DNA of 64,000 bases from the IMG/VR virus record IMGVR_UViG_2630968933_000007, positions 1 to 64,000 of that record; one strand, written 5' to 3'. This document shows positions 18,721-58,600 of this stretch, piece by piece. The translations under genes and the position numbers were made by a program. The notes under the pieces are model-generated. The model had not been told where the DNA came from, ran no database searches, and saw only the letters and a list, made by a program, of their open reading frames with translations. This DNA is from a virus (Duplodnaviria > Heunggongvirae > Uroviricota > Caudoviricetes). Each line of letters opens with the position of its first letter. The first letter of the stretch is position 1.

Positions 18721-18957
18721 GTTGGATAAAAAAAAGCCCGCGCCGGGAAGCGCGGGTGGCAAGGAATAAACAACAAAACGTGAAGTGATCAATTTTCAGC
18801 TGGCGAATAATACCTGATAGTAATCACTCTGCGCAACTGTATGGTCTTTTTCGTATTGCGGGCTGTAGTCATCCTCCTGTTTCTGAACCCTTGTCCATGA
18901 CTGACGTCAGCCCGCACCTTATCTTGATTGCATACACTATCCCTGCCGGGAGGAATA

Positions 18958-20931
18958 ATGGCATTTAAACACTATGACGTGGTCAGGGCATCATCGCCGT
19001 CAGACCTCGCAGGAAAACTGACGCAAAAACTGAAGGAAGGCTGGCAACCCTATGGTAGTCCGATTATCTCAAACGCGGGTTATGGTGCTGAATTTATCCA
19101 GGCTATAGTCGCTGAAGGGGATATGACCTCTCCGGTAGTTTCACCGGGGGGAGATGGTACCCGGACTGTTGTTGTTGAACCAGAATATTACTTTGTCATT
19201 GCGCTGGCCGGACAGTCAAACGGCATGGCGTATGGTGAAGGCCTGCCGCTGCCGGAGACATATGACCGTCCGGACCCGCGTATTAAACAGCTGGCGCGTC
19301 GCAGTACGGTGACACCGGGTGGTGCGGCCTGTGCATATAACGACATCATTCCGGCGGACCACTGCCTGCATGATGTGCAGGATTTGAGCCGTTTTTCTCA
19401 TCCGAAAGCCAGCGCAGAGCAGTATGGGTGTGTCGGACAGGGATTGCATATTGCCAAAAAGCTGTTGCCCTTTATGCCGGAAAATGCGGGTATTTTGTTA
19501 GTGCCGTGCTGTCGTGGTGGGTCTGCGTTTACAGCCGGTGCTGACGGAACGTTCAGTGAAAGTTCAGGAGCGTCGGATAAATCTGAACGATGGGGCGTTG
19601 ATAAGCCGTTGTATAAAGACCTGCTGACACGCACTCAGGCCGCGCTGAAGGCAAACCCCAAAAACATACTGCTTTGTGTTGTCTGGATGCAGGGCGAGTT
19701 TGATTTAAAACAGGGAGCGTACGCCAGTCAGCCCGCCATGTTTGATGCCATGGTGGAAAAATACCGTTCTGACCTGGCGGGAGTATCCGGTCAGTGCGCT
19801 GGTGCTTCTCCTTCTCTGGTGCCCTGGATTTGTGGTGACACGACGTACTACTGGAAGGAGACGTATTCAGCGCAATACGATGCCGTCTATGGCGCATACA
19901 AAACCAAAGCCGGTAAAAATATCTTCTTTGTGCCGTTTATGATGGATGACAATGGTCAGAAAGTCGGGACCAATGAACCGTCAGAAGACCCGGATATTCC
20001 GGCTATCGGGTATTATGGTTCCGGTGGACGAACGGATGCGAAGAGCTGGACAACATCCGATCGTAAAACCCACTTTGGTTCATGGGCGCGTCGCGGAATT
20101 ATTTCCGACCGTCTGGCAACAGCCATTCTTCTGCATGTGGGCAGAGTGGCAGATTTTGTTTCCGGGAAAGTGACAAAAGCCGCGGTTTCTTCAGGCGGAG
20201 GCGTATCGCAACCAGCACAGGAGAGTGGCGATACTCAGCCTGAATCCGTTGTCCCGACAAAGATACAGTCAGTGCTGGCTTATGATGCGAATGCGGAAAA
20301 TGCCGATCTGGCTTCGCAGGGCTGGACGCTGACAGATGTCAAAAACACGCTGGTCAGTGACAGTGGTTCAGGTAAAAAAGCCCTTCGTCTTGAAAAACCA
20401 GAAAATGGTCTTGCACAGAAAAAGACCTGGAAAGTATCGCACGCAATTGATGCCGGTAAGGGGAAGGAGCTGTTCGATAACGGCGGTGAAATCACGCTGC
20501 GCTTTAAAATCCCCGATGATGTATCTCTCAATGCTTCTGCAAATCAATATTCTGCGGGTATTTACTGGCGCGGTAGTGGATGGCCGGGAGCGGAATCAGA
20601 GGAGGGTTATATTGCGGCCTTCTATCTGCAGACTGATAAAACAAACATCAATGTGATGTATCATGCAAACACCACATCACAGCGGCTTGGTAGTTATGGT
20701 CCGTTCGATCACGACTGGCACACGCTGACTTTCCGCTTCCCGGGTGGTGGCTCGCTGAACGTCACGCCGGTGCTTGATAATGCAGCAGGAAAACCGTTTA
20801 CGCTGACCAGATGGACGAATGCAGCCTTTGAGGCCAACGCGCTGGCAATTACGGATATTACCGGAAATGCGGCAACTTACCCTGTGCTGATTGAAAGTCT
20901 TACTGTTGGTGTGAATGCCGTAGCAGCATAA
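18958..20931 (+). CDS. nanS: Prophage sialate O-acetylesterase NanS-p-like (DUF1737 N-terminus + SGNH hydrolase)
   Basis: N-terminal MAFKHYDVVRASSPSDLAGKL...; SGNH block ALAGQSNGMAYG; position downstream of Q as in Stx phages. Confidence 0.8.
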   Translation: MAFKHYDVVRASSPSDLAGKLTQKLKEGWQPYGSPIISNAGYGAEFIQAIVAEGDMTSPVVSPGGDGTRTVVVEPEYYFVIALAGQSNGMAYGEGLPLPETYDRPDPRIKQLARRSTVTPGGAACAYNDIIPADHCLHDVQDLSRFSHPKASAEQYGCVGQGLHIAKKLLPFMPENAGILLVPCCRGGSAFTAGADGTFSESSGASDKSERWGVDKPLYKDLLTRTQAALKANPKNILLCVVWMQGEFDLKQGAYASQPAMFDAMVEKYRSDLAGVSGQCAGASPSLVPWICGDTTYYWKETYSAQYDAVYGAYKTKAGKNIFFVPFMMDDNGQKVGTNEPSEDPDIPAIGYYGSGGRTDAKSWTTSDRKTHFGSWARRGIISDRLATAILLHVGRVADFVSGKVTKAAVSSGGGVSQPAQESGDTQPESVVPTKIQSVLAYDANAENADLASQGWTLTDVKNTLVSDSGSGKKALRLEKPENGLAQKKTWKVSHAIDAGKGKELFDNGGEITLRFKIPDDVSLNASANQYSAGIYWRGSGWPGAESEEGYIAAFYLQTDKTNINVMYHANTTSQRLGSYGPFDHDWHTLTFRFPGGGSLNVTPVLDNAAGKPFTLTRWTNAAFEANALAITDITGNAATYPVLIESLTVGVNAVAA

Positions 20932-43828: not shown

Positions 43829-44485
43829 ATGGGCGGAAGTAAAGGTGGTGGTGATACCAAAGTAAAACCAACAGCAGCGCAAATAGCACAGGAAGAGGTG
43901 GCCTGGAAAGGGTGGCAGGATTACAAAAATATTCTCCGTCCGGCAGAAGATAACTTCATGAAAAAGGTCGATGACCTTAACAGTGAGCAGCAGTACGAAA
44001 ATATCGCAGGCACAACAAATCTTGGGTATCAGAAACAGTTTGGTGAAGCGCGAAGGGAGCTGGCGGGTAATCTTGCTCAGTCCGGCGTTGACCCATCCAG
44101 TGGTCGTTTTAATGCAGTAATGGATGCAAATCAAAGCGACCAGGTGATCGGGCAGATTGACACGACCACACGGGGGCAGGTATCGCAGGCAGATAAATAT
44201 ATTGCCGGGCTACAGGATGTTGCGGCTCTCGGTTCCGGTCAGAAGGCAGATGCGTTACAGAGTTTTAACTCCCTGGCTGACAGCAGTCTGGCAAAAGCCA
44301 AATCGGACGCACAGGCTGCGTTTACGAAACAGCAGGGGCGAGCCTCTCTTGTTGGCGCTGGTCTGGGTGCGGTTGGTGCATATGCGATGCATAAGGCTGG
44401 CGGTAGCGGAGGAAGTGGCGGTGCTAAAACACCTGGCACCGGCGCTAATGCCATTCAGCATCAGGCTCAGAACTGGAGACTGTGA
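43829..44485 (+). CDS. Hypothetical virion/internal protein
   Basis: 218-aa ORF, Gly-rich C-terminus. Confidence 0.45.
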   Translation: MGGSKGGGDTKVKPTAAQIAQEEVAWKGWQDYKNILRPAEDNFMKKVDDLNSEQQYENIAGTTNLGYQKQFGEARRELAGNLAQSGVDPSSGRFNAVMDANQSDQVIGQIDTTTRGQVSQADKYIAGLQDVAALGSGQKADALQSFNSLADSSLAKAKSDAQAAFTKQQGRASLVGAGLGAVGAYAMHKAGGSGGSGGAKTPGTGANAIQHQAQNWRL

Positions 44486-44934
44486 TTATGGAGTACGGTA
44501 AATACGAAACTCTCGCAAGGGCTGGTTATTCAGGAGCAGCCCGCCCACAGGGTGACTGGCAGACGTCAGCAGCGCTGACACGCCAACAATACGACGACTG
44601 GCGAACCAGATATTTGCCCCGCGTGGCAAGGCTGGCTGACCTTGGCGAGAACAACAGCCTGATGAATGCGCAGCTTGCCCGGGTGGGCGGCCTTGCCACT
44701 TCCAGTCTCCGTACAGCGCAGATGGCGCAGGATAACCAGATGGCACGATATGGCGTTAACCGACCTGATAATCCCAACAGTAATACGCTGGGGTTACGTA
44801 ATGCCCTGGCAATTGCTGGCGCGAAAAATGGTATCCGTGAAGCAGAGCAGGATCGTCAGATGAACATACTGACGGGGGCTTCTGCACCTGCAAGACAGCA
44901 ACTGAGTGTTGGCGGACAACTGGTGTCAGCTTAA
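44482..44934 (+). CDS. Hypothetical virion/internal protein
   Basis: 150-aa ORF, coupled. Confidence 0.45.
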   Translation: MIMEYGKYETLARAGYSGAARPQGDWQTSAALTRQQYDDWRTRYLPRVARLADLGENNSLMNAQLARVGGLATSSLRTAQMAQDNQMARYGVNRPDNPNSNTLGLRNALAIAGAKNGIREAEQDRQMNILTGASAPARQQLSVGGQLVSA

Positions 44935-44943
44935 GGAGGAAAT

Positions 44944-45195
44944 ATGGGATACGGTTTACTGGATATTGCGAATCAGTCACGGCGTGAGGCATTACAGGGA
45001 ATAAGTGACGCCGACAGGCGACGTGAAGAAATTGAGGCTGCTAACAAGCAGATGGCGGCGCAACAGAAAGCGCAGAACAAGCAGAATATCGGTACGGGCA
45101 TTGGTACGGGGGCGGCTATGGGCGCTGCCGTTGGTGGTCTCCCCGGTGCGGCTATTGGTGCTGTCATAGGTGGTCTTGCTGGCTCGTTGTTTTAA
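44944..45195 (+). CDS. Hypothetical small protein with Gly-rich membrane-like C-terminus
   Basis: 83-aa ORF. Confidence 0.45.
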   Translation: MGYGLLDIANQSRREALQGISDADRRREEIEAANKQMAAQQKAQNKQNIGTGIGTGAAMGAAVGGLPGAAIGAVIGGLAGSLF

Positions 45196-45205
45196 GGAGT
45201 GGTGA

Positions 45206-46471
45206 ATGAGCGGATTTGCACAGGGGTTACTTGCCGGATTCAGCACGGTTGACCAGGCAATGACCCGTCGTAAGGAGCTTGGTTTGCGAGAAGCACAGCT
45301 TGCTCAGCAACAGAAAAATAACGAGCGAGATTTTGAGTTTGCGCAGTCGCAGTTTGAACATAATAAAAACGTTGATCAGCGTGACTTTGATTACAAAGCC
45401 AAAGTTGATGACCGTGATTATGCGCTTAAAGAACGTGAATTTAACGCCAACCAGAATTACCGGAATGCGTCGCTGGGTATGGAGCAGCAGCGACTCCGGA
45501 TGCAGAAATACAACCAGCGACGGCTTGAGTATAACGATATGCTGGCGCGCGATCAGCCTGTGATGGCGGCGCTTGGAAAGGCTGTGGATGCTGGCGAGCG
45601 GGATGCAGCAATGCGTCTTTACGGCCAGTTGTCAGAGGGTAATCCGCTGAGGCTGATGGCGAATGATGGCTATGTAGCGAAAGCGGGTCAGGCCGTGAAC
45701 AACCTGCAAAAAATCTTTGATGACAAGCCGGACAGGGCGATCGCTTCACTCAATACCCCGGAAAGTCTTGATGCGCTTTCTGGTGTGTTTGCCCCGGAAC
45801 TGCAACAGCGTATTGGCATGCCCGATTCAACCGGGAAAAAGACGATAAAAGAGGCCAGGATTGGCAGTATCGTACCGGCGCAGCAGGAAGGGTACGTACT
45901 TATTGGCCTTGATCTCACATACAGCGATGGCTCCACCGCGCATAAACCTGTAACAGAATACGGCAGTGCACATCCTGATGATCAAACCGTGCTGGCGGTG
46001 CCTGTTGATAAGGCTGTTGAGCTTGTCAGGGATCGCAGTAAATTCGCGGAAATTTCGAAAAATTTCGGCTATTTCACGCCGAAGCAGCAGGGACTTTCTC
46101 TGGCGAAACTTCAGGAAGGAGCCAGCAGTGTAGCGGCGGAAGCGATCAAGAACGGCGGGAATGCTCAGGCGGCGGTGGATGAGTATTACGCTGCAACTGG
46201 TTCACCGCAACATCAGCAGAAAATTCAGCAGCAAAAAATTCAACAAGGGATTACCAGTTGGGCGGGTGATGATCCGGATAAGCAGGCATTCGCCAGAGAA
46301 GTTGCTTCCCGTCAGCCAGAAATGCTGGAGCCTCAGAATCAGAAATTGCTGGAGAACGGGTATGCGAATTTTCTCCGTATTCAAAAGGCCAGGGGGGAAC
46401 AGGCCAGAGATGATAGTGCGGCCTCTGCATCTGAGTTTATCCGTGGTCTGAAACAGAATTACGCGCAGTAA
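45206..46471 (+). CDS. Hypothetical virion/internal protein
   Basis: 421-aa ORF. Confidence 0.5.
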   Translation: MSGFAQGLLAGFSTVDQAMTRRKELGLREAQLAQQQKNNERDFEFAQSQFEHNKNVDQRDFDYKAKVDDRDYALKEREFNANQNYRNASLGMEQQRLRMQKYNQRRLEYNDMLARDQPVMAALGKAVDAGERDAAMRLYGQLSEGNPLRLMANDGYVAKAGQAVNNLQKIFDDKPDRAIASLNTPESLDALSGVFAPELQQRIGMPDSTGKKTIKEARIGSIVPAQQEGYVLIGLDLTYSDGSTAHKPVTEYGSAHPDDQTVLAVPVDKAVELVRDRSKFAEISKNFGYFTPKQQGLSLAKLQEGASSVAAEAIKNGGNAQAAVDEYYAATGSPQHQQKIQQQKIQQGITSWAGDDPDKQAFAREVASRQPEMLEPQNQKLLENGYANFLRIQKARGEQARDDSAASASEFIRGLKQNYAQ

Positions 46472-46539
46472 TTCACCATTCCCGTTAATACTATTTCCTG
46501 ATACCCGGTCATTGTGCCGGGTTTTTTTATGGAGTCTGT

Positions 46540-49500
46540 ATGGCTTATTCCGATGAACAGCGCCCTGAAGCGCAATTTGGCAACCAGAACCGCAACAGCC
46601 TGAACATTCAGCAGCCGGGCGAGACTGACCGCTATGATGCGTTTTTCTCCGATCCCAATCGCTGGAAGGACAACAGCACGTCGTTCAGCCTGGGCGATGT
46701 ATTGCCAACTATGGGGAAAGGTGTCGCCCAGTCCGTCCGGGGGGCAGGGGAAATGGCCCGTGGACTCGGTGATGCGATGATTCAGAGCCCGGTAAAAACA
46801 GGGGCGCGTATTTTAAATGAGTTCAGCCGTATGGGGCTGCCGGGAGTCGCAACTGTTCAGGATATTTTTGTCGGTGGCAGCAAGGGGGCGGATGAGGTCA
46901 TCGACACTCTGCCTGATGGAAAAAATGCGGTTACTGATATTGTCGGTAAAGGTCTGAAGGTCACAGGCAAGGCAGTCAGTGGCGGCGCTAAAGCCTCGGA
47001 TGAATGGCTGACTGGCAAGATGTCGCCGGGGGCGCTGCGGGCGCTGAATACACCGATGACTGAAGGATATGATGATTCTGCGGTCTGGGTGGCGAAGGGC
47101 GTAAACCTGATTGGTGCCCTTGTACCTGATATGGTTGCAGGCGGTGTGACTAAAAAGCTGGGTGAAGTCACTCTGCGAAAAATGCTGACCGCCGGGCTGG
47201 AGAAAAAATACATTGCGGCAGGGATGCAGCCGGAAAGAGCTACCGCACTGGCAGCAGAAGCTGTCGATAAAAAAATGCCGGATTTATTCCAGGCAGGCCT
47301 GATCACCCATTCCTCAGCCAGCGCACAGGGGCAGAGTGCAATGGCAGCAGCAGACTCTGTTCTTAACGCGGATTACTCTGAGCTGGCGAAGTCCCCGAAA
47401 TTTCAGCAGATGTTTTTGTCAATTGATGCAGATCCGCAGCACGCACAGCTTACTGATCGCCAGAAAATGGATCTGGCAAAAGAGCGTGTTGCCGATGAGG
47501 TGCGCGCGCAGCTGGCAACAGATCCTGAATTGCTGGCTGTGAATGCCATGGCGGCAAAACTGGGCGATGCTCAGTTGCTTAATCTGGCGATGCGGGGCAC
47601 GGCGAAGACCGTTAAAAGCGGCATTGTCAGAAATGCCACGGAACAGGGGACGATTAATGCGGCGCAGGGTGGCTATTCACGCTATCAGGAAAACACGGCA
47701 TTGCGTGAGACTGCCGGAATGGATGTATCACCATGGGAGGGGGTAGCTGACGCAACGATCGAAGGAGCCGCTCTTGGTGCAGCGATGGGCGCACCGTTCG
47801 GTGCGGTTGCCGGATATCGTGGAAAACGTCAGGCCGCAGAAGAAACCGCCATGCGTGAGGCTGAAGTCGTACAGCAGGGTGAAGCAGCCCCGCAACCCGA
47901 ACCGGCTGATCCGGTGGCACAGCATCGCGAATCCATGCAGGGCATGAATCGCGAGCAACTTCTGGAACAGTATGCTGATGCGGATATGGCACATGAGGGA
48001 GACACGTCTGCCGTTCATCGCCGGGAAGCCGCCAGCCAGCTGTTGAATGAACTGGATGAACAGGCGAAGCGACAGGCGGTAATGGATGAGCTGAAGGCGA
48101 AGCCGCGCCCTGAACTGCTTGAGGAATACCGAAAACTCAGCCTGAAGGAAGGGCGTACTGATACTGAAGAGCAGCAGTTACAGGCTATCCGTGATGTGCT
48201 TCGCCCTCAGCAGGAGGCCAGACCGGAGGCACAGCCACAGCCGGAAAATGCGGATGATGGCGACGGGAGTATTTACCCGACGGTGCGGTTCCGCGATCCG
48301 GATGAAGTTCGTATTGAAATTAACGGGAGTGGTGCGTCCAGACCAGCAGAACGCATTGAAAAGGTGCGTCCGGACAACCGTTATTTCACGGATGAAAAAA
48401 GTGCTCTGGGGAGCGACGTTTTCCGCAATGCCAGCGCCACCGGCCTGAAACCGTCCGTAGTAAAGAAAGGCGAGAATCAGTATGCCGTTGAAATGGATAA
48501 TCCTGCGTTCTCTGAAGATGTGGCAACGGAGACCATTAACACCCTGGCTGACGGAGAGCGTATTGCTGATGCTGAACCGATGGAGCAGCCCGCGTTCATG
48601 CGTGACCCGCGATTCCGTGGTTTCACGGGGGATGATACAGAAGTGCAGGCCCGCCTTGCCCGTGGCAACGCGCCGACGGCAGAGGAGCTTGTACGTTCAC
48701 AGATGGCTGAAGGTGATGCCGGTCCGACAGCACAGGAGTTAACTGAGCGTCCACGCCTTCCCGCTCCCGGTGATATTCATCCCGGACAGGGATATCCGTT
48801 ACCAGGAGAAGTGGCGCGTACGCCGGATGAAAATCAGGCCGGACGTGGTGGTCGTTTTACCACAACCGGTGAGGTGAAGGGCCAGAGTTTCCAGAAAGGA
48901 CGTGCGCAGGCACCGGAAAATGCCGCTGGTCGCCGGGGGGAAATACTGGAGGGCGAACCGGTTCGTCGTGGTCTGCCGTCACCGGATGAGCAGAACGCCA
49001 CAGCACCAGTGCGTGAAGGACTTCCTGCACCTGAAAGTCAGCGTGGGGTTGATATGCCACAGCCTGAATCACTCCCTCGTATGGTTCGTGACTCCCTTCC
49101 GGAACTGGCACAGCAGGCAGAAGCACGCAGACAGACCGGGGATAATCGCCAGACCATAACCGATGTTCCGGATACTGAGGTGCCGATGCCGGTAGATAAA
49201 CCGAGCACTCACCAGCAGGCGCGTGGTGCGAAAATTGAAGACTTTGGTGAAGAAATTAAGGGCGCGGCAAAACACCGTTATGCACAGCTTGCCGAAACAC
49301 TGGGTAAAACGCTGGAAGACAGGGATTATTTCACGCAGCCGCTGAGCAAAGTGTTCCCGAAACCGGACTATGCAAAACTGGCGAACGAAGGGGCCGACGC
49401 TGACACACTGGCAATGATAGCGCTGTATCGTAGCGATATTCCGGCGAAGACGAAACACAATACGGCTGGCTGGGGGGAGAGCGTAAAAAAAGTACGACAC

Positions 49501-52500
49501 AGTGTATCGGAAATGCTGAACGGAACGGTCAGCGCGAAACGCCTCGCAGAATGGATGGAAGGCAGAATGCCCTCCCGTTACGCGGATACCTGGCAACTGT
49601 TACGCACTCTGCCACCCTCACAGATGGACAAGGCTTCTGCTTATCGGGTGGTATCGGGTGTGTATCAGGCGGCAGGAGGGAAGCGTTACGATCCGCCACA
49701 GAAACTTTATTCACTGCGCAATAAGGACAATAAGGGGACTAACCTCTTTTTCTCGGAAAGCAGGGATGAATTACTGACAAAGGCGAAAGTCTGGTTTGCA
49801 GAGCTGGAGGAAAAGTCACAGGCGAAAGGAGATGAAAAAACGGCACCGTCACCGGATGACAAAATCAGCTTTGACGTTTACCGGAATACCCGTAGTGGCG
49901 ATATTTTTATCGCTTACGGCAAAAACAAAATGCGGGTGAGAGGTGGTTTTAAGTCAGCCAGTGATGCGCGTAAGTACATTGATTCACATCGTGATGAGCT
50001 TGTTCGTCATGTGAAGGAGATGCGGGAGATTTCGCGTGAGGAGCAGCGTAACGCCACCAACCGCGATCGTACCGGACCAGAACGCCGCAAGGGGGATGTT
50101 TCGCCGGAGCAGTTCAGTGATGCGTTTGGTTTTCGTGGTGTGCAGTTTGGTAATTATGTGGAAGGTCCGCGTCGTCAGGCTGATTTGAACCGGGCTTATG
50201 ACTCGCTGCATGACCTGGCTGATGTGCTGAACGTGCCGACAAAAGCGCTTTCTCTGAACGGTCGTCTTGGGCTTGCTTTTGGTGCCCGTGGTAAGGGTAA
50301 GGCGGCGGCACACTATGAGCCGGGTGAGGTGGCAATCAACCTGACAAAAGGTAACGGACCGGGTGCGCTGGCCCACGAATGGTTCCATTCACTGGATAAT
50401 TATTTTGGTCGTTATGATGTTTCCACTGACGGGAAGATCACGTCAGGTGGCGACTATATGACGGAAGCACAGCGTGCCGGGCGCGTATTTAAAGACGGCA
50501 GATATGTTGATGCGGAATATCCGGTACGTCAGGAGGTTTACGACGCGTTTAAAGGCGTGATGAAAGCGATCAACAGCAGTGACATGCCGCGTCGTTCAGC
50601 GCTTCTCGATGAGGTGCGCTCAAAACCGTACTGGTCAACGGATGTTGAAATGGCGGCGCGTGCCTTTGAGCGTTATGTTCAGGATAAAGCGCGTACGGCT
50701 GGCGTGGAGAATGATTATCTGGTCAATATCCGTAAGGCACCTGAGCACAACACAGATAACACCTGGGCTTATCCGACGAATGCGGAACTGGATGGCGGTA
50801 TTCGTGATGCATTCGATCACCTGTTCAGTACGCTGAAAACCCGTAAGACGGACAAGGGCGTTGCGTTTTATTCCCGTAAGGGCGTGACCCGCACACCTGA
50901 AGGCAATCTCATTTCGGATGTTAACCGCAGTGCGGAAGCCAAAGGCAGCCCGGTCCCGCAGGTTGAAGCGGTTGCCCGTGGCGTGATGAGTGGCATTAAG
51001 GACAGTGACCTGAAGGTCCGCGTGGTGAAGTCACAGAAAGAGGCTGAAGCACTGGCGGGTGAATCATTCGACGGTTACGGCAAGGTGCACGCGTTCTATC
51101 GTCCGGATAAACGTGAAATTGTCCTGGTGGCGGATAACATCCCTGACGGGCGGACCGTACGCGAGAAGTTGCGTCACGAGATTATCCACCATGCCATGGA
51201 GCATGTTGTCACGCCAGCGGAATATCAGACGATCATCAAAACCGTGCTGAAAACCCGCGACAGTGATAACGCCACCATCCGTGAAGCCTGGCGTAAGGTT
51301 GATGCGTCCTATGGTAAGGAATCACCGGAAGTGCAGGCGGGTGAATTTCTGGCACATATGGCGGAGAAACAGCCGAATAAATTCGTGGCGGCATGGGAGC
51401 GTGTTGTTGCCCTGGTCAAAGGGGTACTGCGTCGCACGGGGTTACTGAAGCCGACAGAACTGAACGATATCAGACTTGTTCGCGAGACCATCCGTACGTT
51501 AGGCCAGCGTGTGCGGGAAGGTTACACGCCGCGTGAGGATGGCGCTGGCGCATCGTCTCAGTACTCCCGTAGCGGTAAGCCTGATCCGTTCAAAGTGCCG
51601 GAAGGTGAGGGCGAGCGTTATCGTGATGACCTTGCCAGAATGATGAAGTCGTTACGTTCTGGTGCAATGACTGCAAACATCGGGCGTACGCCGCCGGTAT
51701 TGCGCCACCTTGGCGCACCAGATTTGCCGCTGGTTATCTCCCGCGACACTGTGCGGAAGGCTACCAATGGCGTGAAACATGTGGTGCCAATGGATGTTAT
51801 CGAGAGACTTCCGGAACTGATGCACGATCCGGATGCAATTTACCGTTCCGCGACAGAAAGAAATGCGGTTGTGATGCTGCTTGATGCCATGGATAAAAAT
51901 GGTGATCCGGTCGTCTCGGCAGTGCATATGAAGGCGACAGATAAACGTCTGGAAATTAACAAGGTGGCATCTGTTTACGGTACGGAAAACGGGAAAAAGC
52001 TGAAAAGTATGGAAATGGCTGGATTAACGCTTTACCGGAAGGAGAAATTAAGCCGCGATAACCCTCAGTACAGTGGGCTCCAATTGCCCAAAGAGGAGCG
52101 TTCTTATCGCGGCTCTGTAGATAAAATACTCTATCCTGAAGATATTCGCAAGGGGCCGTATTACTCCCGTACCAGCAGTCTGACACCGGAAGAGACAATT
52201 GCATCGCGTTTTGTGCGCCAGATGCAGGATAAATTCCAGGTGCTGAAAGCTGTTCAGGAGAATATCCGTAAAACTGGCGGAAAAATAGACGACAGTAACA
52301 ACGCTTATATGGCGGAAGAACTCTTCCACGGGAAGGCGGAAAACGACCTGAACGTGATGAAGGAGCGCTACGTTCAGCCACTGGCTAAATTACTGGCGGA
52401 CTACAAAATTGCGCAGGCCGATCTGGATGAGTACCTCTACGCCCGTCACGCGCCGGAACGTAACGCGCATATTGCGAAAATCAACCCGAAAATGCCGGAC

Positions 52501-54906
52501 GGCGGTTCGGGGATGACCAACGCGGAAGCGGCGGAAATCATGCAGCGTGTGCGTAACAGTGGCAAACAGGCACAGTATGACCGTCTGGCAGGGATTGTTG
52601 ACGATATGCTGGCCCGTCGCCGTGAGCTTATCCGTGAGGCCGGACTGGAAGAGAGCGGTGTGGTGGATGCCTGGCAGAACGCCTACCGTTACTACGTTCC
52701 CCTGAAAGGTCAGGATGTTGACGGTGTGGTGTCACTGCCCCGTACAGGTAAGGGCTTCACCATCGGCGGACGTGAAAGCAGGCAGGCCATGGGGCGTGCA
52801 TCCCGCGCACAGTCTCCTTCCACTCAGGCGATACAGGATTTGAGCGAATCGCTGATCCGCCATCGCAAAAACGAAGTGGGTAACGCCTTCCTGAAACTGG
52901 TGCAGGATAATCCCGATAAGGATTACTGGCAGGTATTCACTGATGACAAACCGGACACCATGCGGGCGATTGCAGAGCGTGTTGATCCGGAAACCGGCGA
53001 AACCCGTCGCGAAGTTGTTGAACGTCCGGTGCCTATGGCAATGATGGCGGATCGCTACTTCACCACCAAAAAGGACGGCAAAACTTACTACATTAAACTT
53101 CATGATCCGCGCCTGATGCGTGCGATGAAGAACATGGGGCCGGAAACCAGTAACGCCGTAATCCGTACGCTGGGGAAAGTTAACCGTTTCCTGGCAACGG
53201 TGAACACGTCGTATAACCCGGAATTTCTGGTCAGTAACTTCATCCGTGACGTGCAGACGGCGGTGATGAACCTGAAGGCGGAGCAGGGAAGGAGCGACGG
53301 TAAACTGAAAGGGCTGGATAACTTATCCGCCCTGGCTGTAGTCAAAGACAGCCGTTCTGCAATGTCAGCCGTGTACGCCAGTCTGCGTGGCAAAACCCTC
53401 ACGGGCAAAGGCGCACAGTGGCAGAAAGTGTGGAAAGAGTTTGTTGAGGACGGAGGTAAAACCGGCTGGTTTAACATGGGTGACCTTGAAGGCCAGAAGA
53501 AGGAAATGGATCGCCTTGTATCGCTGGCGAAGGGAGGATGGAAAGGCCAGAGTATCGGTGCATGGCATTCGTTCCTGAACCTGGTCGAGGATGCCAACGG
53601 CGCGGTTGAAAACGCTCTGCGTCTTTCTGCCTATAAACACGCCCGTGATGCCGGTTTGTCACGCCAGCAGGCGGCATCTCTTGCCAAAAACATGACGGTG
53701 AACTTTAACCGTCGTGGTGAGCAGGGAGCGCTGATGAACTCGCTGTATATGTTTGCCAACGCCAGCATTCAGGGGACCGCAAACCTGGTGAGAACGCTCG
53801 GACATCTTAATGGCGACGGGCCGTTACCGGAGCGCCTTCGCTGGAAGAATCTCAATGTACCGCAGAAAATCGCGCTTGCAGCTGTGGGAGCGGGTTATCT
53901 GCTTGGCTCGCTTAACCGCAGTGTTGCGGGGGAGGATGATGACGGGGTTAACTGGTACGACAAGGTGCCGTATCATGTGAAAGAGCGTAACCTCGTCATT
54001 ATGAAATCGATGTTCGGGGGCAGGGCCGGAGAGTACTGGAGTATTCCTCTGCCTTACGGGTACAACGTTTTCTTCCTGCTCGGGCATACCTCTGAAGGTG
54101 TGGCTGCTGGTGACCTGACGGCGTCCCGTGCTGCCGGTAATGTTGTCGGTGGTATCCTGGGGGCATTCAGCCCGATTGGCAGTGAGACGTCGGAAACGCT
54201 GTCCGGGGCATTGCTGAAAAATGCAGCACCGACAATTCTGCGTCCGTTTGCGAATCTTGCCATGAACGAAAACTTCATGGGGGCGCAGATTTACCAGGAG
54301 AACATGCCGTTTGGTACACCAAAACCTGACAGCCAGCTGGGAAGACGTTCAACGCCAGAAGCGTACAAGGCGTTTGCATCCTGGCTGAATGCGTTCTCAG
54401 GTGGCAGCCAGTATCGTCCCGGCGCGGTGGATATCACACCGGAATCGCTGAAATTCTGGATTGACTATATCTCCGGAGGGACAGGGCGCTTCATTTCCAA
54501 AACCACAGATGCGGCGGTGAAATCGCTGAACGGTATTGATATACCGGAGCAGCAGGTGCCCTTCCTGGGGAAAATTTCGGGTGAGGTGATGCCGTATGCA
54601 GACCAGCAGAAGATGTACGACCGGATGACAGAGGTTGCGCAGTATCACGCAGAGCTGAAGAGTCTGACCGGTGCAGAAAGAACGGCGTTCATTGACGAGA
54701 ACAACGGAAAATTGTTGATGAACGGGCTTATGCAGGATACCCGGAAGAGACTGAAGGATTTGCGCAAACAGCGCGATGCCATTTATGCCGACAGTTCTCT
54801 CAGTCTGGCGCAGCAGGCGGCGATGGTGAAATCGGTAGAGCGGGATATGAAGGTTGCCGTGGATCGCTTTAACCGCGAGTACAACAAAAAAGTGGGAGTG
54901 GATTAA
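46540..54906 (+). CDS. Giant 2788-aa protein (putative virion-associated/ejection protein) with HExxH motif
   Basis: Single uninterrupted ORF; HEWFH at residues 1279-1283 (nt 50374-50388); terminator 46513-46537 upstream. Confidence 0.7.
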   Translation: MAYSDEQRPEAQFGNQNRNSLNIQQPGETDRYDAFFSDPNRWKDNSTSFSLGDVLPTMGKGVAQSVRGAGEMARGLGDAMIQSPVKTGARILNEFSRMGLPGVATVQDIFVGGSKGADEVIDTLPDGKNAVTDIVGKGLKVTGKAVSGGAKASDEWLTGKMSPGALRALNTPMTEGYDDSAVWVAKGVNLIGALVPDMVAGGVTKKLGEVTLRKMLTAGLEKKYIAAGMQPERATALAAEAVDKKMPDLFQAGLITHSSASAQGQSAMAAADSVLNADYSELAKSPKFQQMFLSIDADPQHAQLTDRQKMDLAKERVADEVRAQLATDPELLAVNAMAAKLGDAQLLNLAMRGTAKTVKSGIVRNATEQGTINAAQGGYSRYQENTALRETAGMDVSPWEGVADATIEGAALGAAMGAPFGAVAGYRGKRQAAEETAMREAEVVQQGEAAPQPEPADPVAQHRESMQGMNREQLLEQYADADMAHEGDTSAVHRREAASQLLNELDEQAKRQAVMDELKAKPRPELLEEYRKLSLKEGRTDTEEQQLQAIRDVLRPQQEARPEAQPQPENADDGDGSIYPTVRFRDPDEVRIEINGSGASRPAERIEKVRPDNRYFTDEKSALGSDVFRNASATGLKPSVVKKGENQYAVEMDNPAFSEDVATETINTLADGERIADAEPMEQPAFMRDPRFRGFTGDDTEVQARLARGNAPTAEELVRSQMAEGDAGPTAQELTERPRLPAPGDIHPGQGYPLPGEVARTPDENQAGRGGRFTTTGEVKGQSFQKGRAQAPENAAGRRGEILEGEPVRRGLPSPDEQNATAPVREGLPAPESQRGVDMPQPESLPRMVRDSLPELAQQAEARRQTGDNRQTITDVPDTEVPMPVDKPSTHQQARGAKIEDFGEEIKGAAKHRYAQLAETLGKTLEDRDYFTQPLSKVFPKPDYAKLANEGADADTLAMIALYRSDIPAKTKHNTAGWGESVKKVRHSVSEMLNGTVSAKRLAEWMEGRMPSRYADTWQLLRTLPPSQMDKASAYRVVSGVYQAAGGKRYDPPQKLYSLRNKDNKGTNLFFSESRDELLTKAKVWFAELEEKSQAKGDEKTAPSPDDKISFDVYRNTRSGDIFIAYGKNKMRVRGGFKSASDARKYIDSHRDELVRHVKEMREISREEQRNATNRDRTGPERRKGDVSPEQFSDAFGFRGVQFGNYVEGPRRQADLNRAYDSLHDLADVLNVPTKALSLNGRLGLAFGARGKGKAAAHYEPGEVAINLTKGNGPGALAHEWFHSLDNYFGRYDVSTDGKITSGGDYMTEAQRAGRVFKDGRYVDAEYPVRQEVYDAFKGVMKAINSSDMPRRSALLDEVRSKPYWSTDVEMAARAFERYVQDKARTAGVENDYLVNIRKAPEHNTDNTWAYPTNAELDGGIRDAFDHLFSTLKTRKTDKGVAFYSRKGVTRTPEGNLISDVNRSAEAKGSPVPQVEAVARGVMSGIKDSDLKVRVVKSQKEAEALAGESFDGYGKVHAFYRPDKREIVLVADNIPDGRTVREKLRHEIIHHAMEHVVTPAEYQTIIKTVLKTRDSDNATIREAWRKVDASYGKESPEVQAGEFLAHMAEKQPNKFVAAWERVVALVKGVLRRTGLLKPTELNDIRLVRETIRTLGQRVREGYTPREDGAGASSQYSRSGKPDPFKVPEGEGERYRDDLARMMKSLRSGAMTANIGRTPPVLRHLGAPDLPLVISRDTVRKATNGVKHVVPMDVIERLPELMHDPDAIYRSATERNAVVMLLDAMDKNGDPVVSAVHMKATDKRLEINKVASVYGTENGKKLKSMEMAGLTLYRKEKLSRDNPQYSGLQLPKEERSYRGSVDKILYPEDIRKGPYYSRTSSLTPEETIASRFVRQMQDKFQVLKAVQENIRKTGGKIDDSNNAYMAEELFHGKAENDLNVMKERYVQPLAKLLADYKIAQADLDEYLYARHAPERNAHIAKINPKMPDGGSGMTNAEAAEIMQRVRNSGKQAQYDRLAGIVDDMLARRRELIREAGLEESGVVDAWQNAYRYYVPLKGQDVDGVVSLPRTGKGFTIGGRESRQAMGRASRAQSPSTQAIQDLSESLIRHRKNEVGNAFLKLVQDNPDKDYWQVFTDDKPDTMRAIAERVDPETGETRREVVERPVPMAMMADRYFTTKKDGKTYYIKLHDPRLMRAMKNMGPETSNAVIRTLGKVNRFLATVNTSYNPEFLVSNFIRDVQTAVMNLKAEQGRSDGKLKGLDNLSALAVVKDSRSAMSAVYASLRGKTLTGKGAQWQKVWKEFVEDGGKTGWFNMGDLEGQKKEMDRLVSLAKGGWKGQSIGAWHSFLNLVEDANGAVENALRLSAYKHARDAGLSRQQAASLAKNMTVNFNRRGEQGALMNSLYMFANASIQGTANLVRTLGHLNGDGPLPERLRWKNLNVPQKIALAAVGAGYLLGSLNRSVAGEDDDGVNWYDKVPYHVKERNLVIMKSMFGGRAGEYWSIPLPYGYNVFFLLGHTSEGVAAGDLTASRAAGNVVGGILGAFSPIGSETSETLSGALLKNAAPTILRPFANLAMNENFMGAQIYQENMPFGTPKPDSQLGRRSTPEAYKAFASWLNAFSGGSQYRPGAVDITPESLKFWIDYISGGTGRFISKTTDAAVKSLNGIDIPEQQVPFLGKISGEVMPYADQQKMYDRMTEVAQYHAELKSLTGAERTAFIDENNGKLLMNGLMQDTRKRLKDLRKQRDAIYADSSLSLAQQAAMVKSVERDMKVAVDRFNREYNKKVGVD

Positions 54907-55669: not shown

Positions 55670-56314
55670 TTATGTAACAGTCCATGCAGGGCTGAAATCT
55701 GCCTGCTGAAATAACTCCGTTAGCCCGCTAATCTGCTTTAACCTCAGAACTTCATCCTGGTCCATCCCCAGTTCTGTTCCGATACGTTCATCAGTCCAGC
55801 CAAGACGTGAAAGATCTCTGACAATATCAGACATTGAGGTTATCTGGTGTTTCCCCCTGGCTCTGTTATGTCGGATAGTCGCGGCAATACGTGAGGTTTG
55901 TCCCTTTCGGTCTGGATTAATACAGGTTACTGGTAGCCAGCCTTTCAGGCGTTTTCCAGTAACTGTTCTTCTACCTAGTAACTGCCTATGAAAACCATCC
56001 ACCACCAGGTAATGGCTTGTTTCTTCCGAAACAACAATTGGTTGAGTAAAACCGTCTTTTTCCAGAGATTGTTTCAGTAATTTTTTTTCGCTTGGGGCCA
56101 TGACATTGGGATTATAATCGTTAGCGACAATTTCATCCGCTTTTACCCACAGCACACAGTCCACTGGTTCTTGAGCAAAGGGGCTGATCTCATGGAGTAC
56201 GCAGCGGAGATGGTTCAGGGCCTGTATGGTTTTCTCTTCAGATTGTTCCTGACTGAAGTACTGTCGAATCATCTTGCTCAGCACCTCCACCTCTGGTGTC
56301 ACAGAATTCCCCAT
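55670..56314 (-). CDS. ibrB: IbrB-like ParB/Srx-type nuclease-domain protein
   Basis: 214-aa ORF with ParB-like motif region ...QPIVVSEETSHYLVVDGFHRQ...; overlaps ibrA-like gene by 16 bp. Confidence 0.65.
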   Translation of the reverse strand: MGNSVTPEVEVLSKMIRQYFSQEQSEEKTIQALNHLRCVLHEISPFAQEPVDCVLWVKADEIVANDYNPNVMAPSEKKLLKQSLEKDGFTQPIVVSEETSHYLVVDGFHRQLLGRRTVTGKRLKGWLPVTCINPDRKGQTSRIAATIRHNRARGKHQITSMSDIVRDLSRLGWTDERIGTELGMDQDEVLRLKQISGLTELFQQADFSPAWTVT

Positions 56315-57525
56315 TCCTTCCTCCTTTCATTCATACGCTGCAGGTAACGTTCATAGTGCCGGGGTTTGTTGGGGCTGAAGGAGAGCGTTCGGCACCAGAA
56401 ATCATTCTTTATGAGAGTCTTACAAATACGTCGCCAGGAGGGAACATCCCGGCAGCCCAGATCATTTTCCTGTTCATCCGGGATATCATCCGGGAATCCC
56501 CGGTTCTGATACCAGCGCAGGTAAACTGCTATCTTGTTGCGGTAGTGTTCAGCCGTTCTTTCCGGCATTACGTCCAGCAGGAAGAACGCATAGCTGCGCC
56601 AGGTATGATGGGATGGTTTTGACATCCGTTTACGCAGGGCAAAATAGGCCCCGCTTTCATTGGCATAAAGAGCCCCACTGGCAGCACCAGATACTCGTTC
56701 ACACATCCGTGCCCAAGTTTCTGGCTCCAGAACATGATAAAGCCATAGTCCCTTACGCTGTTCCGGGCCAAAAGGCTCACAGACACGCATATTACGTAGA
56801 GGAATGCCTGCGCGGTACATCAAATCATACAGAGGATTGTAGATTGCACAGGTTTTAGCGTTATATACCCAGATATCGTTGGTTTTCCAGTCATACAGCG
56901 GATACATGGTGTAGTAAAAACCTTCAGGTGACGCCGTGGTCCAGGGTTTATCATCTGCATATCTCAGTTTTCGTTGGGAAACCAGTCCCATAAATCTGTT
57001 AAGAGATTCATCCGCGCGGACTCCAGTCAGTATTGCCACGCTACATTGGTTACTTGCGAACCAGGAAGAAAAAGCCGGGACAAATTCTTCAAAAGTCATG
57101 GCGTAGCGGTAAAAGGGGAAATACGCCATATCAGTAATAGCATCTTCCGGTGGCTGTCGAACCCACTCTACACCGGGCTCCCAGCATATCCACTCAGGCT
57201 GAAACTGCGAGACACCATTTACTGTCGTCAGGGGAAGTGCAACCCAGTAAAAGGTATCTGTTACATCTTGGTACATCATCCGCATCTTCTGTATATGATC
57301 AATGGTGCATTGATACTGGGCTTCCCAGTCAATGAACAATACAGAAAAACGACGTTTCTTCCTGTAGGCCACTTCGGCTACAAGATGGAAAAGTACAGTG
57401 GAATCTTTACCGCCAGAAAAAGATAAACATACAGAAGAGAATGTTTCAAACAACCATTCAATGCGGTGAATGGCTGCTGACAAAACATCTTCTCCAGTTC
57501 TGATTTTTGTTATAGTTACCGGCAT
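56299..57525 (-). CDS. ibrA: IbrA-like PAPS-reductase-family (PP-loop ATP pyrophosphatase-like) protein
   Basis: 408-aa ORF with PP-loop-like SFSGGKDS motif near N-terminus. Confidence 0.65.
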   Translation of the reverse strand: MPVTITKIRTGEDVLSAAIHRIEWLFETFSSVCLSFSGGKDSTVLFHLVAEVAYRKKRRFSVLFIDWEAQYQCTIDHIQKMRMMYQDVTDTFYWVALPLTTVNGVSQFQPEWICWEPGVEWVRQPPEDAITDMAYFPFYRYAMTFEEFVPAFSSWFASNQCSVAILTGVRADESLNRFMGLVSQRKLRYADDKPWTTASPEGFYYTMYPLYDWKTNDIWVYNAKTCAIYNPLYDLMYRAGIPLRNMRVCEPFGPEQRKGLWLYHVLEPETWARMCERVSGAASGALYANESGAYFALRKRMSKPSHHTWRSYAFFLLDVMPERTAEHYRNKIAVYLRWYQNRGFPDDIPDEQENDLGCRDVPSWRRICKTLIKNDFWCRTLSFSPNKPRHYERYLQRMNERRKEWGIL

Positions 57526-57693
57526 ACAATCTGATAAAAATAGCGAGGGTTTGCATTTTACCTAGTAACGTTATGTAACTATTTTTTTGAATAAAGGCAA
57601 TGAGATAATGATAAAAAATGTTTATCTAATGTACTGAGCTCTTCTCTTTATTGTATTAACTCTTCGATTTCAGCGGCGTTGTCGTTCAGGTAT

Positions 57694-57714
57694 AAAAAAA
57701 GGAGCCGAAGCTCC
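57694..57714 (-). terminator. Intrinsic terminator after ant (same hairpin as 15143-15162, inverted)
   Basis: ggagc-ttcg-gctcc + T7 on minus strand. Confidence 0.65.
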
Positions 57715-57721
57715 TTTGGTA

Positions 57722-58351
57722 TCAGAATTCAAATTGTCTTGCCCGCAGGCTTTTCAGCATTGGTCTGGCCCGCTGAACTACGAAACTCGACTGGTCAAGC
57801 CGTGCCGCCTCTCTCAGTAGCACATCTCTGTTCTTCGTCACCATGTAGATAGTCTCAAACGCAATGTCATACAGCTTGTTCGTGTATGAGGAGTTCAGCT
57901 CTTTCATTATGGGGTACAGCTGCTTGCTAAGGTCCTGGGCTTTTTCCATCCAGAGCTGCATGTAGCAAAGGAGGATGATTTCCTCGGCTGTGAATTGCGG
58001 CTGTGGTTCTGCTTGTACTGGCTGAATGTTGCGAAGTTTCTTTTCGCACTCGATGAAGTAGCGGCGGATCTGGCGACCTTTTTCGTTACGTTCAACCATC
58101 GCAAGCTCTTTGGCTGTGTCGAGGGTGAGGTGGTAATCCTTGCGGCGGCGGCCTGGAGTTTTCGCCAAATTTGGCGAAAATAGAATGTAGTCTAAATTTT
58201 CTACGAATCCATACTCGTTTAGCCTGGCCCGTATCCAGTTAGAAAAATCTTTACCTACCTCTAAAAATCCATGCAAATCACGCGCGTTCACCAGAAGCGT
58301 AGGTTCATTTGAGATTGTACCTTCAAACACAGGGATGAGTTGAGTGGTCAT
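57722..58351 (-). CDS. Antirepressor, AntA-like N-terminal domain + C-terminal domain shared with 14464..15135
   Basis: Start MTTQLIPVFEGT with SD aggagg; ...DFSNWIRARLNEYGFVENLDYILF... AntA-like. Confidence 0.7.
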   Translation of the reverse strand: MTTQLIPVFEGTISNEPTLLVNARDLHGFLEVGKDFSNWIRARLNEYGFVENLDYILFSPNLAKTPGRRRKDYHLTLDTAKELAMVERNEKGRQIRRYFIECEKKLRNIQPVQAEPQPQFTAEEIILLCYMQLWMEKAQDLSKQLYPIMKELNSSYTNKLYDIAFETIYMVTKNRDVLLREAARLDQSSFVVQRARPMLKSLRARQFEF

Positions 58352-58600
58352 GATGACCTCCTTTGGCTTTTTTCGAGAAATGCCACCACAAGATGTGGTG
58401 CCGGGAGGCTCGAAACGGCCCAAAAGATACCGCGGACTTATTCCCCTTGCGGGTGTTGTATTCGTCGCCCTCCCGACATTGATCGGGGATGTGACCGCAC
58501 ACTGTGCTATCACTGAATAACAGGCATAAAAAATCCAACACTGACGGGGTTGGTTTAATCCGCTTTTGGGAGGTTTTCGAGGCCTCGGCGCGGAGTATAG

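Follow-up and report, generated by a model that had tools for sequence, protein, structure and literature searches.

Phages of the 933W, Sp5 and phi24B type (Sepvirinae), among them those that spread Shiga toxin (Stx) genes, carry a giant gene as the last gene of their late region. In Sp5, deletion of this gene (ORF80, ECs1242, 2793 amino acids, aa) abolished plaques and lysogens, was complementable in trans and left DNA packaging and heads normal, and deletion of ORF79 (421 aa) gave the same phenotype (Mondal et al., 2016). In phi24B, the product (gp47, 2811 aa) was abundant in virions by proteomics and absent from the cryo-electron microscopy map, and was proposed to be an ejection protein (phi24B preprint, 2026). 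In this study, the counterpart of these genes was analyzed in a 64,000-nucleotide (nt) stretch of Caudoviricetes DNA (IMG/VR record IMGVR_UViG_2630968933_000007, positions 1 to 64,000; the window hereafter). Its product is probably a virion-packaged polyvalent protein of a short-tailed prophage of the Sepvirinae, which follows the plan of the virion RNA polymerase (vRNAP) of phage N4 with a different cargo and is most likely ejected.

The N4 vRNAP (gp50), the best-studied analogue, consists in order of a lipid-binding N-terminal domain (NTD), a 100-aa low-complexity linker, the polymerase, a HExxH subdomain and a 110-kDa helical subdomain without structural relatives (Bellis et al., 2026). It is packaged unprocessed, and its metallopeptidase (MPTase)-containing region is needed for encapsidation. 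Cysteine suppression is a conserved feature of the ejection operon of the Schitoviridae, to which N4 and DEV belong, and has been linked to passage through the periplasm (Lokareddy et al., 2024). Phage-type polyvalent proteins, in which a zincin MPTase is the hub domain and LPD5, LPD1, LPD38 and MuF-C/PBECR domains are found, were described by Iyer, Burroughs, Anand, de Souza and Aravind (2017); neither '933W' nor 'Stx' occurs in that paper, so the giant protein of Stx phages is not discussed there.

Identity and Distribution of the Giant Gene

The giant open reading frame (ORF; Table 1) starts with an ATG that is preceded by GGAG at a distance of 7 nt and by in-frame stops upstream, and its translation of 2788 aa has no internal stop; the uninterrupted ORF reported by the initial annotation, which had been made from the sequence alone, is therefore borne out by the ORF list and the translation. 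At the DNA level, the gene matched 186 phage records over its full length with 93–96% identity, nearly all of them Stx-converting or related short-tailed phages of Escherichia and Shigella (GER2, phi24B, PA2, VT2phi_272, P13374 and others). It was also carried by 426 of the 5426 complete E. coli genomes (90–98% identity), where RefSeq names the product 'LPD5' or 'LPD38 domain-containing protein', and PHROG 616 covered the protein end to end. Sp5 ORF80, phi24B gp47 and the 933W and PA2 orthologues are the same gene (93–98% full-length DNA identity) in the same last-late-gene position with the same domains, and differ from the window copy by a few small indels (linker residues 833, 870 and 892; also 1818) and scattered substitutions. 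In PA2 and in one E. coli chromosome, the giant gene lies immediately before the prophage end, and the genes ahead of it encode the portal, an N4-gp56-family capsid protein, the adaptor, tail fibre, nozzle/needle, Lom and Hok, with a stretch of small hypothetical genes after them. A further literature lead (L0121) turned out to concern a tail fibre and not the giant gene.

Domain Architecture of the Giant Protein

The initial annotation had left the domain content unassigned. Pfam, NCBIfam and PHROGs in fact placed LPD5, LPD1, MuF_C, LPD38 and CLCA_X domains in the protein, together with the full-length phage family, and Pfam located LPD5 at residues 1046–1195, LPD1 at 1356–1435, MuF_C at 1745–1836 and LPD38 at 2471–2676. 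A single large polypeptide accordingly unites several unrelated domains (polyvalent proteins have at least two), namely LPD5, two zincin domains, MuF_C/PBECR and LPD38, and it is encoded among late and virion genes, after those for portal, capsid, adaptor, fibre and needle. Both MPTase variants that Iyer et al. (2017) distinguished in polyvalent proteins are present.

Other domains were searched for with negative results. Whole-protein and profile searches against PDB sequences, a set that includes full-length N4 vRNAP, gave nothing significant, and a Pfam scan of sub-segments with E values up to 10 returned only noise and a sub-threshold Peptidase_M76 match in the second zincin domain. No Walker A motif was found in the whole protein with the strict or the loose pattern (G/AxxxxGK[ST]), as the initial annotation had also noticed, and no ATPase family matched in Pfam or NCBIfam, permissive thresholds included. 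The AAA+ ATPase (COG1483) reported for Sp5 ORF80 was thus not reproduced. Neither a T7-like single-subunit RNA polymerase family nor methyltransferase, helicase or ParB domains were matched in Pfam or NCBIfam.

An N-Terminal Module Homologous to the NTD of N4 vRNAP

With the N-terminus as query, a word-index search was limited to hits in E. coli and Salmonella, and an exhaustive HMMER search showed that 66 representative giant proteins (1500–5497 aa) begin with the N-module. Zincin domain 2 was present in 49 of these, CLCA_X in 19, LPD5 and PBECR in 16 each, and an LPD38-type C-module in 12. Thirteen N-module giants examined with Pfam ended in LPD38 or LPD39, and the cargo between the end modules varied across relatives (ddrB-ParB, Sno-type helicase, methylases, ART).

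The hidden Markov model (HMM) of the N-module scored 30.5 bits against residues 115–445 of N4 gp50 and 33 bits against the isolated N4 NTD (residues 1–906), compared with a maximum of 5.7 in 2000 shuffles and −26 for the reversed sequence. When aligned with hhalign to an alignment of N4-like NTDs, residues 259–425 matched N4 296–444 with 97.5% probability (E 5e-12), while cross-controls gave 0.1%, and the sole PHROG vRNAP match to the giant protein (E 0.004) also fell in its N-terminal region. These results indicated that the protein begins with an N-terminal domain homologous to the membrane-associating one of N4. In contrast, searches with the N4 N-terminal region by Iyer et al. (2017) had returned only related phages.

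The resemblance to N4 gp50 and DEV gp71 extends to the general plan. All are giant, cysteine-free, virion-packaged (shown for the phi24B orthologue) products of the last gene of the virion module; they share the homologous NTD, a long low-complexity linker, a HExxH subdomain followed by a helical C-terminal part of ~900–1100 aa, and small cysteine-free genes upstream. Unlike N4 gp50, the window protein has no RNA polymerase domain, its cargo being LPD5, zincin and PBECR domains, and its C-terminal module and the small upstream proteins are without detectable sequence similarity to those of N4. The phage also uses lambdoid early regulation, unlike N4.

Absence of Cysteine from the Giant Protein and the Genes Upstream

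The 2788 residues of the giant protein include no cysteine (P ~1e-9 at the 0.74% of neighboring virion genes). Further, cysteine is missing from all five consecutive plus-strand genes at 43829–54906 (218, 150, 83, 421 and 2788 aa), that is, 0 in 3660 aa vs. 0.74% in the other virion genes of the window. The PA2 and KY173 orthologues and the N4-like vRNAPs likewise contain none, and only 8 cysteines were counted in the 196,224 residues of the 66 N-module relatives, 60 of which have zero. The giant gene and those directly ahead of it thus show cysteine suppression of the Schitoviridae type.

The HEWFH Zincin Domain

Two HExxH motifs are present in the giant protein, while 0.04 would be expected by chance from its composition. 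The initial annotation had recognized HEWFH at residues 1279–1283 as a zincin-like signature, and this proved real in both position and fold; it had overlooked the second, HEIIHH at residue 1546, and it is the domain with this motif that the wider family retains. The region around HEWFH matched CLCA_X (NCBIfam NF041907) over residues 1177–1432 and profile positions 3–245 of 250 with E 1.3e-44 and 152.5 bits, a score below the curated 260-bit naming cut-off that indicates domain-level homology rather than membership under the family name. Since this match spans 1177–1432, the LPD1 of Pfam represents the C-terminal part of zincin domain 1.

A homologue search with residues 1177–1660 gave 987 hits. 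The pattern HEW[FWLM]HxxD[ND] was kept in every diverse homologue examined (33–55% identity), so HEWFH is not a chance match, and H1258, Y1259, E1260, H1279, E1280, W1281, H1283, D1286, E1370 and E1377 were each at least 90% conserved. An AlphaFold2 model of residues 1040–1660, built from an 87-sequence alignment, had a mean predicted local distance difference test (pLDDT) value of 85.4 and placed HEWFH in a fold of one helix, three strands, the helix of the HExxH motif and a downstream helix with E1370, which is the core of the zincin-like MPTases of Iyer et al.; the HExxH region is predicted to be a structured zincin core and not unstructured. The zincin domains most closely resembled the endopeptidases MtfA, lethal factor and PPEP, not the wall peptidases M15 or M23, and minimal zincins, YbeY, Spartan, IrrE, Wss1 and thermolysin ranked lower in the domain 1 comparison. 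Two residues, H1258 (end of strand 2) and D1286 (three residues past the motif), match the phage polyvalent MPTase clade of Iyer et al. (2017).

CLCA_X was described as a sister group of the CLCA metalloprotease domain, which cleaves itself, and as borne mostly by phages or plasmids (Lenart et al., 2013). None of its members is known to have shown protease activity. The giant protein shares with this family HExxH, a nearby conserved Asp and the frequent occurrence in very long proteins, while its motif is HExxHxxD and not the HExxHxxxD of that paper.

The LPD5–CLCA_X cassette also occurs as a stand-alone protein in two different settings (L012, 8001–10388, and L013, 8001–9725). In a phage-like contig, it adjoins a 988-aa protein with an SLT transglycosylase domain; in a Gemmobacter transposon or conjugative element, which has TniQ, TniB and Mu-type transposase, PcfJ and a giant protein of Sno-type helicase but no virion, it is the other stand-alone LPD5 and CLCA_X protein. 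Judged from these sequences, HEWFH is part of a mobile LPD5-linked cassette, and zincin domain 1 would more likely act as an effector protease.

The HEIIHH Zincin Domain

The second zincin domain is also modelled with a zincin core, formed by helix 432–444, strands 453–457, 479–482 and 487–491, helix 498–517 that carries HEIIHH, and helix 557–571 that carries E1602 (model numbering), although Pfam detected it only through the sub-threshold Peptidase_M76 match. The columns of the His, Glu, His and downstream Glu were invariant in 13 aligned giants, and the downstream helix (A/V)EExxA(H/R)xAE, which contains E1602, was conserved as well. Relatives carry the motif as LRHE(V/I)(L/I)xH(H/Y/N)G, that is, HExxxH: among 49 aligned copies, 42 fit HExxxH only, 4, including the window protein, have HEIIHH and can be read either way, and 3 lack the first His. 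Domain 2 hence corresponds to the HEXXXH clade of polyvalent-protein MPTases (Iyer et al., 2017).

This domain is the most conserved internal one among the giant relatives (49/66), and ends at a median of 979 aa before their C-terminus. From the alignments, the HEIIHH motif belongs to the conserved core of the family, and HEWFH does not. Zincin domain 2 would most likely cut the polyprotein itself or a partner protein. The relatives P0325, P0331 and P0338 have Q/R-E-E instead of H-E at the start of HExxxH, and in lineages of this type the domain may be catalytically dead.

The PBECR Domain and the C-Terminal Module

The MuF_C match (PF18819) reached 65–70 bits against a gathering cut-off of 27.6. 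MuF-C was defined as PBECR, a phage BECR-fold domain of RNase type (Iyer et al., 2017). In 44 diverse sequences, H1747, H1796 and Ser/Thr at 1770, 1772 and 1811 were conserved, and these residues fit the arrangement of His with Ser/Thr in active PBECR families. In the phi24B preprint, MuF-C was labelled as a metallopeptidase that degrades peptidoglycan, and this is contradicted by the RNase-fold definition; the zincins lie elsewhere, at residues 1177–1432 and ~1471–1625.

The AlphaFold2 model of the C-module had a pLDDT of 85 and a predicted template modelling score of 0.81, and the structure gave no meaningful match in the PDB libraries searched. Over its whole length, the module matched C-terminal pieces of many phage polyvalent proteins, in which it is fused to varied effector domains (ART-PolyVal, methyltransferases, LPD3 and others).

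Possible Roles of the Giant Protein in Infection

Packaging in the virion followed by ejection, as the initial annotation had suggested for the giant protein, agrees with the work on its orthologues, in which phi24B gp47 was found in virions and off the map, and Sp5 ORF80 was essential with normal packaging. In such a course, a few copies would be packed inside the head and be threaded through the tail on infection, accompanied by the small cysteine-free products of the genes upstream; the N-terminal module would associate with the membrane, the linker, long and flexible, would traverse the channel along with the bead-like domains, and the enzymatic cargo, consisting of LPD5 with the HEWFH zincin, the HExxxH-type zincin and the PBECR RNase-fold domain, would act in the cell. 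Several observations weigh against this course or parts of it. The one that fits ejection least simply is the phenotype of the Sp5 mutant, as the particles without ORF80 were not bound by anti-tail-fibre antibody, from which the authors inferred a role in tail assembly (Mondal et al., 2016). The ejection claim for phi24B rests on the absence of gp47 from the map. Because N4 vRNAP is packaged unprocessed, self-processing is not established in the best-studied analogue, and the loss of the first His in 3 of the 49 copies of domain 2 means that catalysis may not always be needed. Also, zincin domain 2 aligned only weakly with the N4 CTD-C1 (hhalign, 21% probability) and the C-module showed no hhalign similarity to CTD-C2, so that kinship with N4 is shown for the N-terminus only.

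The antibody result, together with the COG1483 AAA+ match of the same authors (Mondal et al., 2016), would suit a structural protein that supplies energy for, or takes part in, tail building and is not delivered into the host. This is unlikely, since such an ATPase has neither a Walker A motif nor a family match in Pfam or NCBIfam to stand on, and gp47 was missing from the resolved tail and capsid shell of phi24B although abundant in its virions; cysteine suppression and the homology to the N4 NTD point instead to envelope passage, and loss of an internal protein could also destabilize tail attachment indirectly. A role closer to the cell surface, in which one or both metallopeptidase domains open the way for a trans-periplasmic conduit to the inner membrane by digesting peptidoglycan or its peptide cross-links, was proposed in the phi24B preprint, and wall-cutting cargo does travel on this type of protein, because some C-module relatives carry LT_GEWL domains; one stand-alone LPD5–CLCA_X protein is also the neighbor of a transglycosylase. 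However, the peptidase assignment of the preprint was made to MuF-C, which is PBECR with an RNase fold according to Iyer et al. (2017), the two zincins resemble MtfA, lethal factor and PPEP more than M15 or M23, and the same cassette is found in an element without virion. We consider digestion of the wall to be improbable as the function of these domains.

The zincin motifs could also be non-catalytic relics in domains that serve only as structural beads for packaging, which would be in line with the need of N4 for its MPTase-containing region in encapsidation, with the unprocessed state of the packaged N4 protein and with the three relatives that lost the first His of domain 2. Nevertheless, across relatives at 20–50% identity, both domains keep the His, Glu, His and downstream Glu with few or no exceptions, and H1258 and D1286, additional residues of the active site, are conserved too; relic status is unlikely. 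Least probable of all is an effector that shields the incoming DNA from host restriction in the manner of DarB, at which the initial annotation had hinted. The DarB proteins of P1 and of the Bcep22 type are likewise giants packaged in the head, with which the window protein shares the LPD38-type carrier region and, in relatives, the N-module; a PHROG annotated as 'DarB-like antirestriction' matched with E 5e-27, and Sno-type helicase and methylase domains are carried by N-module relatives. The match, the sole one of its kind, was however confined to residues 2349–2676, which is the shared LPD38 carrier module, while the SNF2/Sno-type helicase and DNA methyltransferase domains that define DarB function, and ParB, were not found by Pfam and NCBIfam. 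Moreover, the gene is essential on a K-12 host, unlike accessory anti-restriction functions.

The Region Upstream and the Surroundings of the Giant Gene

As initially annotated, a series of small genes precedes the giant ORF (133, 218, 150, 83 and 421 aa). The last of them corresponds by position to the essential Sp5 ORF79, and the 218-, 150-, 83- and 421-aa products are candidate partner ejection proteins. The size series 150/421/2788 aa parallels that of N4 gp52/gp51/gp50 (150/644/3500 aa), a trio that is likewise cysteine-free. No hhalign similarity was found between the four ORFs and N4-like gp51 and gp52, with shallow profiles; gp51/gp72 and gp52/gp73 of N4/DEV are too divergent for sequence tests even within their family (Lokareddy et al., 2024). 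A phmmer comparison of N4 gp51–gp59, gp64 and gp67 with the virion ORFs of the window gave no match, and it has no power, because even the capsid protein was missed.

The hairpin and T-run that were initially annotated as a terminator at 46513–46537 are real, but start ~10 nt upstream of the position first given. They lie inside the late operon, and are notable only for their intergenic position on the coding strand and not for their frequency, as 12 terminator-like sites were found in the scanned region vs. 11.5 expected from shuffles.

Table 1. Features of the giant gene and of the region just upstream in the window (aa, residues of the giant protein)
Feature	Coordinates	Strand	Evidence and remarks
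Four upstream genes, 218/150/83/421 aa	43829..46471	+	All cysteine-free; PHROGs of unknown function
Terminator-like hairpin and T-run	46503..46529	+	Stem-loop 46503–46522, then TTTTTTT to 46529; within the 68-nt gap before the giant ORF
Giant ORF, 0 Cys	46540..54906	+	Orthologue of Sp5 ORF80/ECs1242 and phi24B gp47; PHROG 616 match over full length
N-terminal module, aa 1–440	46540..47859	+	Hydrophobic segment 181–200, Gly-zipper 406–433; homologous to the N4 vRNAP NTD
Linker, low-complexity, P/E/Q-rich, aa ~441–1040 (~600 aa)	47860..49659	+	Composition; carries the indels (833, 870, 892) that separate phage variants
LPD5 domain, aa 1046–1195	49675..50124	+	Pfam E 5e-45; always travels with zincin domain 1 in homologues
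Zincin domain 1, CLCA_X type, aa 1177–1432	50068..50835	+	Includes LPD1 1356–1435, HEWFH 1279–1283 (50374–50388), H1258, D1286 and E1370
Zincin domain 2, aa ~1471–1625	50950..51414	+	HEIIHH 1546–1551 (51175–51192), conserved E1602 (51343–51345); HExxxH clade
MuF_C/PBECR RNase-fold domain, aa 1745–1836	51772..52047	+	Pfam PF18819 E 5e-18; H1747, H1796, S/T at 1770, 1772 and 1811
C-terminal module, 915 aa, mostly helical, aa 1874–2788	52159..54903	+	LPD38 2471–2676; hydrophobic segment 2440–2462

The G+C content of the giant ORF is 54.6%, vs. 48.7% in the 5.5 kb upstream and 45.9% in the 4 kb downstream; within the ORF, it is ~51.5% in the LPD5–zincin and PBECR segments and ~55% in the end modules. 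Just past the giant ORF lie three minus-strand genes (55670–58513), which encode an unknown 214-aa product, a PAPS-reductase/DUF3440 protein (56299–57525) and an AntA/P22_AR_C antirepressor-like protein (57722–58513), and beyond the last of these a host-type molybdopterin oxidoreductase is encoded at 59425–61851. The 667-aa ORF at 18928–20931 has DUF1737, a SASA esterase domain and DUF6645, and is a NanS-p-type esterase, the phi24B counterpart of which (gp84) is a processed capsid decoration protein (phi24B preprint, 2026). No tRNA genes were found in the window. No ORF of the size of stxA was visible between ~14 and 19 kb, although stx was not searched for directly, and the prophage may belong to the Stx-phage group but lack the toxin.

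Discussion

The sequence and model data place a real zincin signature in a polyvalent ejection protein that had already been described, and assign its protease domains predicted roles. The gene, its family, both zincin clades, presence in the virion and essentiality were available from databases or the literature. The present analysis corrects the domain map, shows that conservation lies with the second motif, establishes homology between the N-terminus and that of N4 vRNAP, and finds in Stx-type phages the cysteine-free signature known from ejection operons. Two published labels are corrected at the same time, in that MuF-C is not a metallopeptidase and no AAA+ ATPase is present.

Beyond this, it is conceivable, though we regard it as rather less likely than otherwise, that the Stx-phage giant protein and N4 vRNAP are two versions of one ancient cysteine-free delivery chassis of T=9 short-tailed phages. 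Such a chassis would combine a membrane-anchoring N-module, a flexible linker, swappable cargo, a HExxxH zincin and a helical C-module of ~900–1100 aa; the polymerase would have been swapped for protease and RNase cargo, and the zincin would cleave the polyprotein after injection to free the cargo.

Phages that spread Shiga toxin genes devote about one seventh of their genome to the giant gene, and their infectivity requires it. By locating two metalloprotease-type domains and tying the N-terminus to the membrane-binding domain of N4 vRNAP, the domain map provides a concrete plan for mutagenesis. If the tentative chassis reading is true, Shiga toxin-spreading phages would need a self-processing injected protease for infectivity, and that enzyme could be inhibited.

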